Part shown: piece by piece, positions 2,009 through 15,076 of the stretch
How the letters are laid out: each line of letters opens with the position of its first letter
How positions within the stretch are numbered: the stretch's first letter is position 1
Source of the DNA: an uncultured Ectothiorhodospiraceae bacterium
GTDB taxonomy: Bacteria; Pseudomonadota; Gammaproteobacteria; CAYQDX01
Length of the DNA stretch: 15,231 bases
Assembly: GCA_964416345.1 (NCBI GenBank)
Contig: CAYQDX010000001.1
Span: 29,033-44,263, forward strand
Direction of reading: 5' to 3'
Position numbers and translations under genes: made by a program
Notes under the pieces: generated by a model
What the model saw: the letters and a program-made list of their open reading frames with translations, nothing else
What the model was told of the DNA's origin: nothing
Databases searched by the model: none

Positions 2009-2554
2009 GTGGAGCAACACAAGATCATATTCACGGGCCCCGTCGGGGCGGGTAAGACCACGGCCATCAATGCGATTAGCGACATCCCAACGGTGCGCAC
2101 GGACGCCACGGCCACCGACATGACGGCGGGCCGCAAGCGTGTGACTACCGTGGCCCTGGATTTTGGCGTCATGAATCTAGGACCGGACGAGCGTATTCAT
2201 CTCTACGGCACCCCAGGCCAGGAGCGCTTCGACTTCATGTGGGAGATCCTGTCTAAGGGAGCCATCGGCCTCGTGCTGTTGCTCGACAACACCCGCGCCG
2301 ATCCCTCCGCCGACCTACGCTTCTTCGTGCAGGCGTTCCGTGGGTTCATCGACCGCACGGAGCTAGCGGTGGGGGTGACCCGCATGGACCTGAGCCCCAA
2401 GCCCCGGATCGCGGACTATCACAGCGCCATCCGCGGTGTTGGACTCAAGCCGCCCGTCTTCGCGGTCGACGCCCGGGAGTCCCGGGATGTCGGGCTGCTA
2501 ATTCAGGCCCTGCTCTACAGCCTGGATCCGGGTTTGGTGGCAGCCGATGAGTGA
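2009..2554 (+). CDS. Small Ras-like GTPase (MglA / conservon CvnD-like ATP/GTP-binding protein)
   Basis: 181 aa with a GTG start. P-loop GPVGAGKTT (aa 10-18). Switch II/G3 is GTPGQERF (aa 67-74), characteristic of the CvnD/MglA-like subfamily. The G4 position reads VTRMD instead of NKxD. AGAGG lies 9 nt upstream. Its stop overlaps the start of the next gene (ATGAGTGA). Confidence 0.8.
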   Translation: MEQHKIIFTGPVGAGKTTAINAISDIPTVRTDATATDMTAGRKRVTTVALDFGVMNLGPDERIHLYGTPGQERFDFMWEILSKGAIGLVLLLDNTRADPSADLRFFVQAFRGFIDRTELAVGVTRMDLSPKPRIADYHSAIRGVGLKPPVFAVDARESRDVGLLIQALLYSLDPGLVAADE

Positions 2555-3230
2555 GCTTACTTTGGCCCCGGAGACCTATGTGGTGCCAAGTCCGGCGGGC
2601 GCGTACTACGCGGCATCCAACCGCAGCCAGGAGCCGGCCCGCGCCCTGCTGTTTAGGCTCATGAGCCTAGGGCAGACGCCGATACTCACGACGGATCTGC
2701 TGCGATCCTGGCTGGGGGACCAGCAGGTGCACACGGGGCTGGAGCTGCTGTGGCACATGCAGTCGCTGGGCTGGATTCAGGGCGCCCGGCAGGCCCGTCC
2801 GGCGCCGGCCGGGGCGCTGGACGAGATTCTTCTGGGGATGCTGGCCGAGCTCTCCAGCGAGAAGAAGGCGCTGCTGGCCGACGACAGCGGCTTCTACGTC
2901 GCCAACTACGGTTATACCCACGAGGCCGCCGAGGAGCTTTCGGCCCTGAGCGGGCGCCTGGCGTCACTCTACGAGCGTCATCGCGGCCTGCTCTACAACA
3001 ATCTGGGAATTCCCTCGGCGGCCTGGGCCGTGGTCGACGCCGCCGGCAACAGCACGATCGGCTTCTGGCCACTGTACATCGGCGTCGAGCGCTTCGTTCT
3101 GGCCATCAGCGGCATGCCGCAGCTCAGTCAGCCGGCCTTCGTCGACCTGGTCTGGGCGCTGGCGCGCCGCTACGCAGATGTGCCGGAGGTCGCTCCCGAC
3201 GCAACCGTCGTGCCCGTGCACGGTACCTGA
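2547..3230 (+). CDS. Hypothetical 227-aa protein, translationally coupled to the GTPase gene
   Basis: The ATG at 2547 overlaps the GTPase stop by 8 nt. GC3-rich codon usage is consistent with the neighbouring genes. No family recognised from the sequence alone. It sits between the GTPase and Roadblock genes, which is the position taken by the DUF742-type CvnC partner in the actinobacterial gene order cvnA-cvnB(roadblock)-cvnC-cvnD(GTPase). This arrangement is hypothetical-REC-like, GTPase, unknown, roadblock, so the order differs. Confidence 0.6.
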   Translation: MSELTLAPETYVVPSPAGAYYAASNRSQEPARALLFRLMSLGQTPILTTDLLRSWLGDQQVHTGLELLWHMQSLGWIQGARQARPAPAGALDEILLGMLAELSSEKKALLADDSGFYVANYGYTHEAAEELSALSGRLASLYERHRGLLYNNLGIPSAAWAVVDAAGNSTIGFWPLYIGVERFVLAISGMPQLSQPAFVDLVWALARRYADVPEVAPDATVVPVHGT

Positions 3231-3306
3231 GCAGGAATACATTTGCCCGCGTGGCGCCGGTGCACCACGCATTAGACCCACAGACTGGGAATAGGAGAGC
3301 CTACTC

Positions 3307-3669
3307 ATGCGCGAAGACATGCTCACCTCCATACTGAATGATCTCAAGGGCACATCTGCGGATATCGAAGCCTCGGCGGTGATCTCCACCGATGGACTCA
3401 TCATGGCGGCCCAGCTTCCGCAAGGCATCGACGGCGACCGGGTGGGCGCCATGGCCGCCGCCATGCTGTCGCTGGGTGATCGCACCGCCCAGGAGCTCAG
3501 CCGCGGACTGCTGGAGCAGGTCCTGATAAGAGGCAACAAGGGCTACGTGCTCATGACTCATGCCGGGCCCGATGCGGTGCTCTCGGTGCTTGCCTCCTCC
3601 AATGCCAAGCTGGGCCTCATCTTCTTGGATGTTGCGCGGGCCGCGGAATCCATCGCCAAGCTGGTTTAG
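3307..3669 (+). CDS. Roadblock/LC7 domain protein (MglB / CvnB-like)
   Basis: 120 aa. SAVISTDGLIMAAQLP...DRVGAMAAAMLSLGDRTAQELSRGLLEQVLIRGNKGYVLMTHAGPDAVLSVLASSNAKLGLIFLDV is the typical Roadblock/LC7 alpha-beta pattern. A strong RBS AGGAGAG sits 7 nt upstream. Confidence 0.8.
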   Translation: MREDMLTSILNDLKGTSADIEASAVISTDGLIMAAQLPQGIDGDRVGAMAAAMLSLGDRTAQELSRGLLEQVLIRGNKGYVLMTHAGPDAVLSVLASSNAKLGLIFLDVARAAESIAKLV

Positions 3670-3696
3670 CGCGGCAAGTAGAACGGAGACCAAATT

Positions 3697-4056
3697 ATGG
3701 CCAACAAAGCGTTCTTTCTGCTGCGCATGAACGATCACGTCCAGTACCTGCACAAGATCCAGGCGACGCTGGAAGGTAGGGGCGACTTTCAGGGCACGGA
3801 CTGGCACGAGTGCAAGCTGGGCAAGTGGCTCTACGGCGAAGGTGTCGCCGAGGCGGAGGCAGCCGGCCCCGAGGTCAAGGCTCTATTCGACAGCCTGTTT
3901 GAGCCCCACGAGGCCTTCCACAAGGCCAGCCACAGCGCCTTGGGCAAGCAACAGGACGGCGACGAGCAGGGCTCACGGGAGGCCGTGACCGAGATGTACC
4001 GGCTGTCGAACACCCTGGTCGAGATGCTGCTGTCCTTGGATCAGAAAAGCAACTAG
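3697..4056 (+). CDS. Stand-alone CZB (chemoreceptor zinc-binding) domain protein
   Basis: Matches the published CZB motif exactly: H-x2-Y (HVQY), then 21 residues, then C-x-L-G-x-W (CKLGKW), then 26 residues, then H-x3-H (HEAFH). The RBS GGAGA precedes the ATG. It starts 27 nt after the roadblock gene, so it is probably co-transcribed. Confidence 0.8.
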   Translation: MANKAFFLLRMNDHVQYLHKIQATLEGRGDFQGTDWHECKLGKWLYGEGVAEAEAAGPEVKALFDSLFEPHEAFHKASHSALGKQQDGDEQGSREAVTEMYRLSNTLVEMLLSLDQKSN

Positions 4057-6005: not shown

Positions 6006-6185
6006 TCAAGCGGCCCGCTGATCCGGGCGCACCTTGTCCGAGGCGAATACCATGATGAGGCCGATGAACGGGGTGAACAGCAGAGAGGCGAAAAAGTAGC
6101 CCCAGAATCCGAACTTCCTGTGGTTGCCGAGGACGGCGACGATGACGCTGAGGAGTATGTACAGGGCTATCGCCGAGCTGAGCAT
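6006..6185 (-). CDS. Small 59-aa two-helix membrane protein (not in the ORF track because it is under 60 aa)
   Basis: Minus-strand ORF MLSSAIALYILLSVIVAVLGNHRKFGFWGYFFASLLFTPFIGLIMVFASDKVRPDQRAA. Two hydrophobic helices are separated by a basic loop (NHRKFG). GAGGTG lies 4 nt upstream of the ATG. It is co-oriented with the DUF697-like gene and 73 nt downstream of it. Confidence 0.4.
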   Translation of the reverse strand: MLSSAIALYILLSVIVAVLGNHRKFGFWGYFFASLLFTPFIGLIMVFASDKVRPDQRAA

Positions 6186-6258
6186 GGGGCACCTCGCGGC
6201 CGGTGGGATTCATGGCCTGGCACCGCACCCACCGATGCCAGGCCACGAGGTGTCGCTG

Positions 6259-6807
6259 CTAGGCGGCGGCGCCGGTGGTGTGCTGCTTGACCACCAGCTT
6301 GCCCTCCTGGAACTGCTGGGCGAAATAATCCTTCACGGCTTCCGGGTCGAAGTTGAGGAAGGTGCCGCCGGATTCGAAGTGCTGGATAAACACCTTGCCC
6401 AGCGCATAAGTGGCGGCGCCGGAGAGGCTGGGCATGGTGAGGGCGCCCAGGATCGGTCCGGCAATCGGGATGACGCGCAGGGCACTGTAGACCGGCCGTG
6501 CCACGGCCGCCGGTGCTGCACCCGCCAACAGCGGCGCGATGATGTTCTTCACCATATCGTGCGAGTACGGGATTTCGTATAGCTTGCTCAGCCGGTACAA
6601 CAGGTTGAGCTGAATGCCGGTGTTGCCCACGAAATCCAGCAGGGGCAGCGGAAGGACGCCCACGCCCACCGATGCGAGCACGTGCTTCAGAACTAGGGAA
6701 TTGGCTTGCTGGGCCTTGCCGGTGCTGACCGGGAGCTGAGCCTCTGCTGCCGCGTCCGTCTGCGGCTGGGTCGCGCCCTGGTCCGATGCGGTTGATTTTT
6801 CTGTCAT
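6259..6807 (-). CDS. DUF697-like (YcjF-type) domain protein
   Basis: 182 aa. The core GVLPLPLLDFVGNTGIQLNLLYRLSKLYEIPYS...PILGALTMPSLSGAATYALGKVFIQHFESGG follows the DUF697 consensus as I recall it (..PiPlaD......iq..m...ia..YG.......LGk....yF). The N-terminus is low-complexity and Ala/Gln-rich. The family assignment is from memory and should be confirmed by an HMM search. Confidence 0.6.
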   Translation of the reverse strand: MTEKSTASDQGATQPQTDAAAEAQLPVSTGKAQQANSLVLKHVLASVGVGVLPLPLLDFVGNTGIQLNLLYRLSKLYEIPYSHDMVKNIIAPLLAGAAPAAVARPVYSALRVIPIAGPILGALTMPSLSGAATYALGKVFIQHFESGGTFLNFDPEAVKDYFAQQFQEGKLVVKQHTTGAAA

Positions 6808-7087
6808 TGGCTGGCCTCGTTGGGGTGGTTACTACAGAGGCCGGTGAACCGCCGAGCTCATCGACCATCCGGGCTGTGAGCCTTATCACACGAGTCCTAA
6901 GGTTCTCAAAGCGGTGCGGCCGTGTCAATATAGCCCCGCGCCGTACGGCGCCATGCCCAGGGGGATTGGCCGGGGCGGGCGCCATGTCCCGGCGCGACCC
7001 TCAACGCTCGTGCCGGAGTGTGGCCGTGCCGGGACCGCCACGAGTCGGTGGCGAGGGGGGGGCTGCAGGCACAGGAGCTCCAAGCTG

Positions 7088-10714: not shown

Positions 10715-11224
10715 TCACGGCTGCGTATTGAGGGCGACGAGCTCTTTGAGCGTATCGGGATCGTCCCAGTCTCGCTTGCCCACGACGTGCATTGCCACGC
10801 GGCCTTTCGGATCCAGCACGTAGGTGGCGGGCAGCAGCTGTATGCCCCATTCCTGACTCACCGCCGCATCCGGGTCCAACAGCACGGGGAAGCTCACTGG
10901 GGAGTCATCCAGGAAGCGCTGGATTTGGTACTGCGTCTGGGCGATGTTGAGGGCTAGCACCTGAACGTCATTGCGTCGCAGCCGCCTCCAGGCTTGCTGC
11001 AGGCTTGGCATTTCCTCGCGGCACGGACCGCACCAGGTCGCCCAAAAGGTCACGACCACGACCTTGCCGCGATAGTCGCTCAGGCGATGGGTTGCACCGT
11101 CCAGATCGGACAGATTGAATTCCGGAAGCATGGATGCCGTGGTCGTCGGCACTGTTTCGGCGGCGTGGGCGCCGGCCGCAAATAGCAGCGTGGTCCAAAA
11201 CATGGCGGTGAGCAATAGGCGCAT
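10715..11224 (-). CDS. Secreted TlpA/ResA-like thioredoxin-fold thiol:disulfide oxidoreductase (redoxin family)
   Basis: The listed ORF 10715..11413 was trimmed to Met at 11224, which is preceded by AAAGGAG with a 9-nt spacer. The N-terminus MRLLLTAMFWTTLLFAAGAHAAE is a signal peptide. The active site is WATWCGPC (CxxC). The remainder is a typical TlpA-like fold (VVVVTFWATWCGPCREEMP...LLDPDG). Confidence 0.8.
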   Translation of the reverse strand: MRLLLTAMFWTTLLFAAGAHAAETVPTTTASMLPEFNLSDLDGATHRLSDYRGKVVVVTFWATWCGPCREEMPSLQQAWRRLRRNDVQVLALNIAQTQYQIQRFLDDSPVSFPVLLDPDAAVSQEWGIQLLPATYVLDPKGRVAMHVVGKRDWDDPDTLKELVALNTQP

Positions 11225-11397
11225 CGTAGTATTCTCCTTTGACGTGCCAGAGGGTCCATCTGGCGGGCATCCCAGCGGCATTCGCCTACTAATCTGGAAT
11301 TGTCTGCATTGAATACCGAATAGAGTTTTCGTTGCCGATCCAAGGGTCACAATGCAGCTAGAGATGCGCGCGTCGATGCAACTGCCGCATACTGCTG

Positions 11398-11415
11398 TTG
11401 TGACAGGCCCCACAA
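11398..11415. promoter_or_regulatory. Second CRP-like site TTGTGA-caggcc-CCACAA
   Basis: Near-palindrome: 5 of 6 bases match per arm, and TGTGA-N6-CCACA compares with the TGTGA-N6-TCACA consensus. It lies ~175 bp upstream of the tlpA-like start codon. Confidence 0.25.
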
Positions 11416-11568
11416 TTCCTACTTTCGGTGTGACGGACGGCAGACTTGCAGGTAGGTCGGACGGGACCTAGGCGCCGAATGCCCCGCGGATTGTGACGCA
11501 GAATTTGCCGCGGGTAGCTGCGTCAACAAAGGCGGGTCGGGCGTGGCGATCGCGAGGCGCGAGCCATT

Positions 11569-11584
11569 CGTGACGTGTGTCACG
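11569..11584. promoter_or_regulatory. Perfect CRP-family palindrome cGTGAC-gtgt-GTCACg (core GTGA-N6-TCAC) in a divergent non-coding region
   Basis: The sequence CGTGACGTGTGTCACG is a 6+6 inverted repeat with a 4-nt centre. It fits the CRP/Vfr-type core GTGA-N6-TCAC. It lies in the 1.1-kb non-coding region between the divergent tlpA-like and Sel1 genes. Confidence 0.3.
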
Positions 11585-12251
11585 TGAAGTTTGTGCGGGA
11601 ATTCTTTTGGCACGTGCAATCCGTGCGCGCCGGTCAATCGAGAGTGGGTCTTCGCTTCGCGTGCTTTGCGGCTTGACCAGAGTGCTTTTTCTTCGGTCCG
11701 GAGCAAACGAGCGCTCTCGGCAAGGCGGAAGGATGGCAAGGAATTCTATATCGTGGTCCGTGCTATTCCCGGTCGAATGCTTTTGATTGCGAAGCAGCGC
11801 AAATTCGTCAATGCGGAATTGGTTGGAGCTAGTCCGCCGAGCGTCGCTGCAATTTATAGGCTTGAACCGGTACCGCGATATGTCTATTTCTGCACCCCGG
11901 GTACGGGGTTACGGCTTTGCTTTTCTTGTAGGTTCTTGCGTCAAGTCGATCCCGGGCAGCCACTATTTCGGCGGTACTCTGCCGAAGCCGCAATCGTCGC
12001 TGAGCAAGGGCCGCGGAAAGAAATAATTGTCCCAAGATTGCGCCGGATATGGGGACGGATTCAAGGCGCGGCAAGGGGCGCATAGCCCGGACTATGCAAC
12101 GCTTGCCACCGCATCCCGCTCGGCCGCCTGCGAGCTGCCGGCCGGCAATCCACCGGCCAATAGGCGGAGCGCGCTTCGGTGCACGTCGCTCCATTTTGCG
12201 GTGTGGGCTTCCGTCGAGTGTCGCAGGGGCTCGATTGTCAGTCGCAAGATA

Positions 12252-12257
12252 TATAAT
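12252..12257 (+). promoter_or_regulatory. TATAAT -10-like hexamer upstream of the Sel1-repeat gene
   Basis: ATATATAATATT is the only strongly AT-rich patch within 100 nt upstream of ATG 12312. The -35 is unclear, because TTGTCA at 12235-12240 is too close. Confidence 0.2.
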
Positions 12258-12311
12258 ATTCAGCCTTCGCCTCGGCTACGATCAAGGCGCTGCAATTCCC
12301 TGGAGAGCACT

Positions 12312-13073
12312 ATGAAACGGATTGCCGGCTGCTTGCTGATCTTTTTCATGATCGGGATGAGTGCCCGGGCGGAGCATTCCGAGTCGGATTTTGCGAGGGG
12401 TCTCAGCGCATATGGCAAAGGTGATTTCGCCGCCGCACTGGCAAGCTGGCGCCCATTGGCCGAGCAGGGCAACCCGGTGGCACAGCTCAACGTTGGCGTC
12501 ATGTTTGCCAAAGGCGAGGGCGTGGCCCAGGACGATGGTCAGGCGGTCGAGTGGATTCGCAAGGCTGCGAGTCAGGGCTATGCTCAGGCCCGGCTCAGTC
12601 TGGCCAACATGTACTTCGCCGGCCGCGGGGTGTCGAAGGATTTGCCGCAGGCGGCCACACTCTACCGTCAGGCGGCTGAGCAGGGCAATTCTGTTGCGCA
12701 GCAGAATGTCGCCAACATGTACTACAAGGGCCAGGGTGTGGCGCGGGACGAGCAGGCCGCCGCCCAGTGGTATCTCAAGGCGGCGGCTCAGAACCAGGCA
12801 CTGGCGCAGTACAATGTCGGTGTCATGTACGCCATAGGACACGTGGGACTGGAGCAGGACTACGCCCAAGCCTATCTGTGGCTGACGCTTGCCTCCCGTA
12901 GAGGAGTGGGGCCGGCGGAAGCCGCGCTGGAGCAGATTTCTGCGAAGATGAGCCCCGAGGCCGTCGCGCGGGGGAAGGCTCTGGTAGAGCGCTGGCGCCC
13001 GCAGACGATGGCCGGACCCGGTGGGACCGCCGGTGCGTCATCGGCGACCCCTAAGCCGCAAGTCATCCCCTAG
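12312..13073 (+). CDS. Secreted Sel1-like repeat (SLR/TPR-family) protein
   Basis: The listed ORF 12027..13073 was trimmed to ATG 12312, with GGAGAG 4 nt upstream. The N-terminus MKRIAGCLLIFFMIGMSARA is a signal peptide. About five Sel1 repeats follow (A-x-L-G-x-MY-x-G-x-GV-x-D-x-x-A-x-WY-x-KAA-x-QG). Confidence 0.8.
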   Translation: MKRIAGCLLIFFMIGMSARAEHSESDFARGLSAYGKGDFAAALASWRPLAEQGNPVAQLNVGVMFAKGEGVAQDDGQAVEWIRKAASQGYAQARLSLANMYFAGRGVSKDLPQAATLYRQAAEQGNSVAQQNVANMYYKGQGVARDEQAAAQWYLKAAAQNQALAQYNVGVMYAIGHVGLEQDYAQAYLWLTLASRRGVGPAEAALEQISAKMSPEAVARGKALVERWRPQTMAGPGGTAGASSATPKPQVIP

Positions 13074-13407
13074 CGCTTCCGACGCTGTTCCTCGGGTGCG
13101 GCCGGCTCGGTGAGAAACCGCGTGCATCTTTTCCGAATATTATTGTTTGCGGAATATCTTAATCTATGGGAAATATGCGCAGATGTGGACAGGAAACTTG
13201 CACAGCTGGCCAATGGGCTGCAAGAGGAGCAGAGTCGGCTCTTCCACTAGGTTTCCGCCAATCCCAAGGCCCCGGCATGATGCAACAGCGGCGCGGGCCA
13301 AGCCCGCGAGGGATGTCGTTCGCCATTAACAAGTGGTTGTTGTGGCAGTATTATTCCCTACTGCCCGGAGGGGGCTAGAGCAGATTTTTCGAATGCGGAC
13401 GATTTCT

Positions 13408-13416
13408 TGGTAGAAT
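13408..13416 (+). promoter_or_regulatory. Extended -10 promoter element TGgTAGAAT
   Basis: TG-n-TAGAAT sits inside the AT-richer leader, ~130 nt upstream of the 92-aa ORF start. There is a weak -35 (TTCGAA) 17 nt upstream. Confidence 0.25.
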
Positions 13417-13547
13417 GGAGCTGTTTGGGCACCATGAAGCAGCCATGAAGAACAATAGGGAATGACTCTGGATAGGCCGGCGGCGCGCGCTCTGGCTGGG
13501 AAGCCGACGGCCGAGATCGACCACATGACTTTGATAAGGAAACAGGA

Positions 13548-13826
13548 ATGCAAGAGACCTCAAATGTGGAGATGGGTAGTGCCCGCCAGTTTCGCGTGAT
13601 GCTGGTGGAGAAGACGAGCGTGCCACACGGCGGCGCGGAGGATGACACCTGGTACCGATATGTCCTGAGCAGCGGCTGCTCGGCGATAACCGGCTGGCGC
13701 CGTGGCTCCCTGCAGGAGGTCACCCAGCACGCTACCCGGTGCACCGAAGAGCTCAACGCCCGCAGCCGCGGAGGCACCTCCTCCTGGTCACCCCGCCGCA
13801 AGAAGGTTGGCTCCAGCGCAGGCTGA
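13548..13826 (+). CDS. Hypothetical 92-aa protein
   Basis: The ATG at 13548 is preceded by AAGGA at 7-nt spacing. Third-position GC is high and matches the genome style, unlike the AT-richer leader upstream. It is convergent with glcF and separated from it by a GC-rich hairpin. No family recognised. Confidence 0.4.
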   Translation: MQETSNVEMGSARQFRVMLVEKTSVPHGGAEDDTWYRYVLSSGCSAITGWRRGSLQEVTQHATRCTEELNARSRGGTSSWSPRRKKVGSSAG

Positions 13827-13844
13827 TACGAGCCAGCACCTGGC

Positions 13845-13868
13845 AGGCGCACGGCTCCGGGTGCGCCT
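13845..13868. terminator. GC-rich hairpin between the convergent small ORF and glcF (candidate bidirectional terminator)
   Basis: aGGCGCAC-ggctccgg-GTGCGCCt gives an 8-bp stem and an 8-nt loop. On the plus strand it is followed by a short CTTTGG run. It lies exactly between the two convergent stop codons (13826 and 13868). Confidence 0.3.
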
Positions 13869-15076
13869 CAGCTTTGGTCCAGCAGCGTAATCCAGTGTGC
13901 CACCGGGACGTCCGCAGCGGTGTCCAGGTGGAGCTGGCAGCCGATGTTCGCCGTGGCGATGAGCTCCGGCCGTTGCTGCTGCAGCTGGCTGAGCTTGCGC
14001 TCGCGCAGCCTGGCGGCCAGCTCAGGTTGGAGTATGGAATAGGTTCCCGCCGACCCGCAGCACAGGTGGCTCTCGGCTACCGGGACCAGCTCATGGCCGA
14101 GCCGCGTGAGTATGCCTTCCACGAGCCCCCGCAAGCCCTGGCCGTGCTGAAGGGTGCAGGGCGGATGGAAGGCGATGCGCCGGATGGGTGTGGGGCGTAG
14201 CGCCTCTAGCGGCTCCGTTGCGAGCACTTCGCTGAGGTCTCGCGCCAGGGCGGCGATGCGCTCGGCCTTGGCCGCATAGCGCGGATCGCCTGCCAAATGG
14301 TGGCCGTAGTCCTTGATGAGGACTCCGCAGCCACTGGCGGTGCTGACGATGGCCTCGACGCCGGCCTCCACCTCGGGCCACCAGGCGTCGATGTTGCTGC
14401 GCATCTGCGCCCGCGCCTCGGCCTCGGCACCCAGGTGGGCGCTGACGGCACCGCAACAGCCCTCGCCCCGCACGCCGACAGGCTGGATGCCCAGCCGATC
14501 CAGCACCCGTGCGGCGGCGGCATTGATGTCAGGCGTCAGGGCCGGCTGCACGCAGCCCTCCAGCAGCAGCACGCGGCGTTCGCGCTTCCCCTCGGGACGT
14601 GCCGCGGCGACGACCCTGGCGGGCACCTTGCCCGCGAGGCGCCGAGGCAGCAGCGGGCGCAGCACCTGACCCAGGCGCAGCGCCGGGGTAAACAGCCAGC
14701 GTGTGGTGAGTGCCCGCCGCAGCAGCCAGCGCAGGCTGCGCTCCCCGGGGCCGCGCGGTGCGCGCTGCTCGATGAGCGGGCGCACGATATCCAGCAGGCG
14801 GCCGTACTGCACGCCGGACGGGCAGGTGGTCTCACAGTTGCGGCAGGTCAGGCAGCGGTCCAGATGCAGGCGCGTGCGCCGTGAGGTCTTGCCGCCTTCC
14901 AGCATCTGCTTCATCAAGTAGATGCGACCGCGCGGGCCGTCCAGCTCGTCGCCCAGCAACTGGTACGTGGGACAGGTGGCGTTGCAGAAGCCGCAGTGCA
15001 CGCAGGCGCGCAGGATCCGGTCGGCCTCCCGTCCCTGGGGGGACTCTTTGATGAAGTCGGCGAGATGAGTTTGCAC
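13868..15076 (-). CDS. glcF: Glycolate oxidase iron-sulfur subunit GlcF
   Basis: 402 aa with a GTG start. The N-terminus (V/M)QTHLADF...[38 protein letters not shown] is near-identical in pattern to E. coli GlcF. A second ferredoxin motif is [12 protein letters not shown]. The C-terminal CCG-type cysteine motifs CCGAV and CCGSAG are present. Confidence 0.9.

Follow-up and report, generated by a model that had tools for sequence, protein, structure and literature searches.

A spacer of more than 1 kb between two divergently oriented genes raises the question of whether it hides a gene or an RNA, serves as a control region, or carries little of any function. In the window (the whole 15,231-nt stretch of DNA that was analysed) a tlpA-like redoxin gene (10715-11224, minus strand; Pfam AhpC/TSA and Redoxin, E about 1e-30) and a Sel1-repeat gene (12312-13073, plus strand; identified by Pfam) point away from each other, and the DNA between their start codons (11225-12311) comprises 1,087 nt with a GC content of 57.9%. 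The first-pass annotation offered three options: the region might contain a decayed gene or a small RNA, or it might be a multi-input promoter region. We propose a plainer answer, to which we assign a probability of roughly 0.7, namely that the region is true intergenic DNA, most of it without sequence-specific function, and that only the parts beside the two genes are functional. The spacer shows no coding signal, drifts at a nearly neutral pace, differs by indels between lineages and contains a copy of a multi-copy repeat, and its two ends are conserved.

Composition of the spacer and its evolution in relatives

The initial description of a ~1.1-kb spacer devoid of credible genes proved accurate: its coordinates are exact, and the ORFs that can be drawn in it lack the local coding signature. 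The real genes of the window have a GC3 of 0.76-0.87 and a GC2 of 0.34-0.57, against flat profiles and a GC3 of 0.51-0.73 in the ORFs of the spacer (0.51-0.66 for those of at least 69 aa). In a sliding three-phase GC plot the periodicity is gone from ~11200 to ~12350, where the difference between the maximum and the minimum is at most 0.22. The claimed drop in GC is also real, with 60-70% in the genes of the window versus 57.9% over the spacer and 54.7% in its lowest 300-nt window. Unselected DNA in GC-rich bacteria tends to have a lower GC content than coding sequence, and we attribute both the length of the spacer and its lower GC to the accumulation of such DNA.

Two other statements made about the region did not hold. 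All other spacers were said to be shorter than 310 nt, but a second long non-coding stretch (13074-13547, 474 nt, 55% GC) lies directly 3' of the Sel1 gene. The spacer was also said to be dense in palindromes, but its 16 inverted repeats with 6-bp stems compare with 9.9 +/- 4.2 in dinucleotide shuffles (P = 0.085), its three with 7-bp stems compare with 2.4 (P = 0.43), and other 1,087-nt tiles of the window contain 8-30 inverted repeats with 6-bp stems. The spacer contains no tandem repeats, and a repeat search for direct and inverted repeats inside the region returned nothing significant. Two interleaved inverted repeats at 11483-11525 (CCCGCGG...CCGCGGG, 11483-11489 with 11508-11514, and TGACGCAG...CTGCGTCA, 11494-11501 with 11518-11525) fold with a z-score of only -1.1; the segment 11471-11509 is unchanged in relatives, an invariant run of a length not above chance.

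Close relatives of the locus were found by exact-cluster look-ups and through the spurious ORFs that the spacer yields in public assemblies. TlpA-anchored scans of genome and metagenome collections gave as their best match a protein 45% identical and without synteny, the candidates being flooded by the common motif VTFWATWC. TlpA homologues at ~50% identity (L170-L173) were tried as syntenic guides and rejected; they are not syntenic, and the 211-aa protein encoded upstream of them is unlike the spacer. Three close metagenomic lineages, 92-98% identical, cover the region: the window type (L163, with L001, L002, L164, L167 and L168; 97.5-100% identity), L165/L166 and L175/L176. A distant lineage, in which TlpA is 62% and Sel1 70% identical, is represented by two short contigs from JGI sample 3300062818, L169 and L174, which cover 67 nt and 146 nt of the spacer, respectively; both ends of the spacer can still be aligned at this distance. 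L165/L166 and L175 span the region from tlpA to Sel1, and therefore the adjacency of the two genes is real.

Among the close lineages 120 of the 1,087 columns of the spacer vary (11.0%), as compared with 14.9% of third codon positions in tlpA and 9.4% in Sel1. The same picture emerges pairwise: the window and L165 differ by 7.9% in 11225-11866, versus third-position divergences of 11.4% in the SPFH gene and 8.8% in tlpA, and the window and L175 differ by 7.5% over the whole spacer, versus ~10% at tlpA third positions. Substitutions are distributed without bias over the three phases (12/19/14, p = 0.42), and no invariant run exceeds 40 nt, where permutations give a mean of 45 for the longest one. 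The sole sign of constraint among the close relatives is a reduced density of changes in 11257-11374 (6 variable sites in 118 nt, about 13 expected), with the qualification that at 92-98% identity such a conservation test would miss a short RNA or constraint that is weak or patchy. The indels in the spacer measure 1, 1, 1, 11 and 280 nt and are thus mostly not multiples of three. The largest corresponds to a segment (11867-12146) that is present in the window lineage and in L175/L176 and missing from L165/L166. L175 shares 27 of the 51 differences between the window and L165, and we infer that the absence is a derived deletion in the L165 lineage, so that this quarter of the spacer would be dispensable. 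On the preferred reading the centre of the spacer is unselected DNA, drifting at about the synonymous rate and free to gain and lose pieces, the 280-nt deletion in one lineage included.

Tests for decayed genes and non-coding RNAs

Pfam searches with the six longest ORFs and with full six-frame translations of the spacer gave no match at E <= 1 except for one chance match (E = 0.095). We also carried out an exhaustive, index-free phmmer search with the 12 longest open segments (at least 54 aa) against 1.84 billion representatives. The positive control P0252, a 209-aa ORF called in the same spacer of a relative (L165), was recovered at 1e-73, and so was P0263, an ORF of 97 aa that had been called in another relative's spacer; the remaining six matches are weak (E 3e-5 to 9e-4) and all fall on the translation of 12007-12107, the repeat described below. 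Hence phmmer revealed no protein family in the spacer, and its matches are confined to spurious ORFs of the same locus and ORFs derived from the repeat. A word-indexed protein search with an X-spaced composite of the six frames came back empty but is unreliable, as it missed P0252, which is ~80% identical to part of the query.

Comparison of the lineages likewise gives no conserved coding frame, in that none of the ORFs with 25 codons or more combines a frame unbroken in the three lineages with a codon bias. The only one of that size that is intact throughout has 26 codons, and its variable sites are spread evenly over the codon positions (2/3/4); a 164-codon ORF (19/18/20) is broken in L165. 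The 209-aa ORF of L165 is itself a product of the 280-nt deletion together with the loss of one stop codon and an insertion of 1 nt. It has a GC3 of 0.57 and encodes an arginine-rich protein that is 80% identical at 92% DNA identity, values that suggest roughly neutral evolution in that frame.

Of the alternatives to unselected intergenic DNA, the one that fares best is that at least one gene, perhaps transcribed together with tlpA, used to lie in the spacer and has decayed past recognition. Stop codons in the six frames are fewer than expected (49, against 64.5 +/- 5.7 in dinucleotide shuffles), and three open frames reach at least 140 codons (P = 0.026); this mild depletion and excess could be the fossil of a former coding sequence. 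TlpA homologues at ~50% identity are indeed preceded by a gene for a hypothetical protein of 211 aa on the same strand, which overlaps the tlpA start by 4 nt, but these homologues are adjoined by citrate synthase instead of the SPFH gene and may be paralogues, and tblastn searches of the window with the 211-aa proteins gave only chance matches (E >= 0.18). Selection on the neighbouring Sel1 gene appears relaxed: its substitutions show little third-position bias (5/8/11 by codon position), and in L165 it has acquired a premature stop at codon 188. The additional non-coding stretch beyond Sel1 (13074-13547) would also be in keeping with a decaying neighbourhood. Against this stand the failure of the Pfam and phmmer searches to find any family and the lack of residual codon periodicity, and so the decayed gene of the first-pass annotation is left without positive evidence. 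The locus resembles the long neutral intergenic or gene-decay zones of other genomes in its approximately synonymous drift, frequent indels, lower GC than coding DNA and a neighbour under relaxed constraint that is truncated in one lineage, but it differs from them in the absence of a recognisable pseudogene fragment. Overall we consider an eroded gene unlikely, although the shortage of stop codons and the long open frames leave room for such an origin, which would fit the relaxed and truncated Sel1; nothing identifiable is left of it.

Long spacers between divergent genes are typical homes of small RNAs, structured leaders and antisense transcripts, and some features could be read in that direction here: the conserved hairpin-capable elements beside both genes, discussed in the next section, and a hairpin ACCCCG-GGTA-CGGGGT at 11896-11911 that is followed by a T-rich stretch. 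Nevertheless, Rfam gave no match at gathering thresholds over the whole window and, for 11100-13950 at E <= 5, only two chance-level matches of 17-18 bits against thresholds of 46-50; no tRNA was found, and on both strands of the spacer no sliding 100-nt window reached an RNA fold z-score of -2. A single terminator-like site is predicted in 11000-12500, versus 1.9 expected. Moreover, the centre drifts almost neutrally and tolerates the 280-nt deletion, with which the hairpin at 11896 is lost. The small RNA suggested earlier thus finds no support either, and we regard any non-coding RNA here, whether a small RNA, an antisense transcript or a long structured leader at the 5' end of tlpA or Sel1, as a highly improbable content of the region.

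Candidate control regions beside the two genes

Under the preferred reading, in which the bulk of the spacer is unselected, the outer parts would work as regulatory regions and leaders, covering roughly 360 nt next to tlpA and 60-100 nt next to Sel1. The option of a multi-input promoter region, the third of those proposed at the outset, stands in part: both ends are conserved in the lineage with 62% and 70% identical proteins, and three CRP-type motifs are kept in the three close lineages.

The tlpA side would comprise a ribosome-binding site, an inverted repeat in the leader and three CRP/FNR-type sites located 175-360 nt upstream of the start codon. The putative ribosome-binding site AAGGAGA (11232-11238, tlpA side) is kept in all lineages, including L169. 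Just upstream of it, 22-40 nt from the tlpA start, lies the inverted repeat GCCAGA-N7-TCTGGC (11246-11264, minus strand), whose arms are identical in the window, L163, L165, L175 and even L169 (TlpA 62% identical), where the 7-nt centre differs. Its fold is not significant (z = -0.6). We consider this repeat a candidate operator or 5'-UTR hairpin; as an operator it would bind a regulator.

Matches to TGTGA-N6-TCACA with at most two mismatches occur four times in the window, and three of them are clustered within 186 nt of the spacer (11399-11584). The first, TGTGACAGGCCCCACA (11399-11414), has one mismatch and is kept in L175 and L165, with a sole change at the first base of the second half-site. 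The second and weaker one, TGTGACGGACGGCAGA (11429-11444), has two mismatches, and its only substitution in relatives falls within the 6-nt spacer. The third is a perfect 16-bp palindrome, CGTGAC-GTGT-GTCACG (CGTGACGTGTGTCACG, 11569-11584), equivalent to GTGA-N6-TCAC and the only perfect GTGAC-N4-GTCAC in the window; its half-sites are kept in all lineages, with one change (11574, L175) in the central spacer, and its flanks are densely variable. Thus, wherever the CRP-type motifs have changed in relatives, the change affects a 6-nt spacer or the first base of a half-site. The fourth match, at 6875-6890, fits the consensus perfectly and is located in another divergent promoter region, which separates a DUF697 gene from an ORF starting at 6914. 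Over the whole window the number of matches is at chance (4, with 3.75 expected) and the motif was picked after inspection of the sequence, whereas the L175 contig, which consists mostly of the spacer, has 4 matches with 0.49 expected, a number reached in 0 of 200 shuffles. The heptamer TTGTGAC was seen three times, only in 11346-11497, and was merged into the reading of these sites as CRP-type motifs.

The clustering and conservation of these motifs are suggestive of candidate sites for a regulator of the CRP/FNR family, in which case tlpA transcription would probably depend on an activator. E. coli CRP, Pseudomonas Vfr and Xanthomonas Clp act at promoters with multiple TGTGA-N6-TCACA sites. 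The region upstream of tlpA is similar to such CRP-dependent promoters in that its three motifs match 8-9 of the 10 half-site positions, with half-sites kept in three lineages, and in that a perfect consensus occurs in another divergent promoter region of the same window. It differs from them in that the window contains no gene of the CRP family, and in that the sites are 175-360 nt away from the tlpA start codon, farther out than class I and class II sites typically lie, unless tlpA has a long leader.

On the Sel1 side the putative control elements would be a TATAAT-like box and a leader hairpin. Both are found at 12250-12278 (plus strand): the box TATATAAT at 12250-12257, with TATAAT at 12252-12257, followed by the hairpin AGCC-N8-GGCT at 12261-12278, which is also what the single minus-strand terminator-like prediction corresponds to. 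Upstream of Sel1 no other block can still be aligned with L174, where Sel1 is 70% identical. Scans of both strands found no consensus sigma-70 promoter, and no sigma-54 site was found. We regard the TATAAT-like box as a candidate -10 element of a Sel1 promoter that falls short of a full sigma-70 consensus, and the hairpin as the possible start of the 5'-UTR.

A dispersed palindromic repeat in the centre of the spacer

The segment 12007-12107 (plus strand, 101 nt) is a partial copy of a MITE-like palindromic repeat, with the left terminal repeat and the central hairpin present and the right arm missing. The same 101 nt recur, 97% identical, at an unrelated locus with unrelated flanks in another metagenome (L177, 1506-1606). 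A BLAST comparison of the spacer with the fetched loci revealed a further copy in L169 (596-696; 86% identical to 12007-12107, E = 8e-28). There the match constitutes the left arm of a larger element, 166 nt long and bounded by terminal inverted repeats of ~28 nt (AGGGCCRCGGAAAGAAATAAKTRTCCCA); this element folds as one long hairpin (DNA fold z = -11.9), and its reverse self-match spans positions 2-164 at 73%. The L169 element is located 3' of tlpA, between the stop codons of tlpA and the SPFH gene; at this position the window and L165 show an empty site of 35 nt. The flanks of the filled and empty sites are too diverged to define a target-site duplication, with TA or TTA possible at the ends of the L169 element. 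Further copies exist on other contigs, where six called ORFs translate them; several of these copies include the right arm, as is visible from the peptides P0264, P0266 and P0267. Neither this dispersed repeat nor the lack of constraint in the bulk of the spacer had been foreseen in the first-pass annotation.

The copies of the window and L177 (101 nt each) and of L169 (166 nt) are well below ~500 bp and have no coding capacity; the ORFs that overlie them run in differing frames and are artefacts of gene calling. The window copy on its own has no significant fold (z = 0.2), and the terminal inverted repeats of the full-length L169 copy are absent from the one-armed copies of the window and L177. 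The latter two stop at the same base, a shared boundary that simple random truncation does not explain. We found no match to the repeat in Rfam, in plasmid records (blastn) or in viral contigs (two pattern scans), and a literature search with its sequence strings yielded nothing beyond a yeast primer that is unrelated.

Bacterial MITEs and palindromic dispersed repeats include the Correia elements of Neisseria, the enterobacterial ERIC/IRU, the cyanobacterial Nezha and the REPINs. The present repeat resembles these families in being small, non-coding and intergenic, in its occurrence at several unrelated loci and genomes, in the terminal inverted repeats of ~28 nt and single long hairpin of the full-length L169 copy, and in that it breaks short-read assemblies. 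It differs from them in being unrelated in sequence to any catalogued family searched (Rfam, plasmid records, literature strings), and also in that a target-site duplication could not be delimited, the two viral-contig scans revealed no parent insertion sequence, and the copies of the window and L177 are one-armed with an identical end base. We infer that the repeat arrived in the spacer by transposition: the unselected centre would have captured a small, non-autonomous palindromic element, of which the one-armed 101-nt copy at 12007-12107 is left.

A more far-reaching scenario is that the 101/166-nt repeat represents an undescribed family of mobile elements of this uncultured gammaproteobacterial lineage, whose one-armed form propagates itself or, placed upstream of genes, serves as a portable regulatory module; the spacer would then be a CRP-controlled regulatory hub. 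The basis offered for propagation of the one-armed form is the identical right boundary at two loci. We regard this scenario as quite unlikely.

The repeat also bears on the integrity of the locus. In Logan contigs from four sequencing runs, all assemblies break at 12036-12098, within the repeat: the contigs end 30-31 nt into its left end and restart 10-34 nt before its right end, and we take the reach of ~30 nt into the repeat to be the k-mer overlap. A de Bruijn-graph assembler is expected to break in this manner at a multi-copy repeat. A chimeric join at the repeat, with the long spacer as an artefact of assembly, could be suspected on account of the breaks at 12036-12098 in the short-read contigs of all four runs, but it is of negligible probability, as the breaks match the ends of the multi-copy 101-nt repeat (10-34 nt inside, mostly about 30) and independent assemblies join tlpA to Sel1: in L175 (ENA) the spacer is complete, and in L165/L166 it lacks the 280 nt.

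Thus, the spacer is ordinary and largely unconstrained, and its interpretation as a hidden gene or RNA is unsupported. Outside annotation it matters little. For annotation, we suggest that gene callers should place no genes here; spurious ORFs of 209 and 97 aa from this spacer are already in protein databases. The multi-copy repeat accounts for the breaks in short-read assemblies at this spot in the organism. The CRP-type sites provide a testable hypothesis for the regulation of tlpA, the gene of a periplasmic thiol-disulfide reductase, and the repeat family could be a marker for a poorly sampled lineage.

Palindromic repeat and contig ends

The Logan contigs of the window type (L001, L002, L163, L164, L167 and L168, from four sequencing runs) all end or start within the 101-nt palindromic repeat, 10-34 nt inside it, at window positions 12036-12098; these ends therefore foretold the boundaries of the repeat ahead of any homologous copy. 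A full-length copy of 166 nt is inserted at positions 595-760 of L169, a short contig of a distant lineage, where tlpA and the SPFH gene converge on it from either side. The SPFH gene terminates with TAA, and this stop codon lies at the outer margin of the right terminal repeat.

The word-indexed protein search, for which the query was a composite of 1,950 aa with runs of X translated from the tlpA-Sel1 spacer, missed a database representative approximately 80% identical to part of that query, and an exhaustive protein search recovered the same representative (P0252, a spurious ORF from the L165 spacer) at 1e-73. Negative results of indexed searches with long composite queries should not be trusted.

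Sel1 gene and the region downstream

In the closely related lineage represented by L165 and L166, a premature stop follows codon 187 of the Sel1 gene (L165 1996-2559; L166 568-1131), which in the window comprises 253 codons (12312-13073). Substitutions in Sel1 between the window and L165 are distributed as 5/8/11 over the first, second and third codon positions, so purifying selection is slight. The box upstream of Sel1, TATAAT in the window, reads TATAAC in L165.

The Sel1 stop codon is followed by a second long non-coding spacer (13074-13547, 474 nt, 55% GC) without codon phase, bounded on its other side by an ORF of 92 aa (13548-13826, GC3 0.80) that has no Pfam match. This ORF is 99.3% identical between the window and L165, and both differences (2/2) fall in third codon positions. 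The equivalent spacer of L174, a distant relative, is AT-rich and 240 nt long, and a different gene, whose product carries a signal peptide, comes after it.

Other loci of the window and the context of distant tlpA homologues

A perfect match to the CRP consensus, TGTGAGCCTTATCACA, is present at 6875-6890, in the region from which the DUF697 gene (6259-6807) on the minus strand and the ORF that starts at 6914 diverge. For the long minus-strand ORF at 6167-6985, which is probably spurious, the GC profile is non-coding (GC3 0.49). The cluster at 2009-4056, which encodes a small GTPase (ATP_bind_1/Roc-like), a Roadblock/LC7 protein and a protein with a chemoreceptor zinc-binding (CZB) domain, resembles a polarity or signalling module of the MglA/MglB type.

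The gammaproteobacterial TlpA homologues of approximately 50% identity have, ahead of tlpA, a conserved hypothetical gene (L170 6366-7004; L173 6369-7004; L171 104-829), whose product of 211-241 aa has no Pfam match. This gene and the start of tlpA overlap by 4 nt, and a citrate synthase gene adjoins the pair. The hypothetical gene and tlpA look like a conserved two-gene unit.
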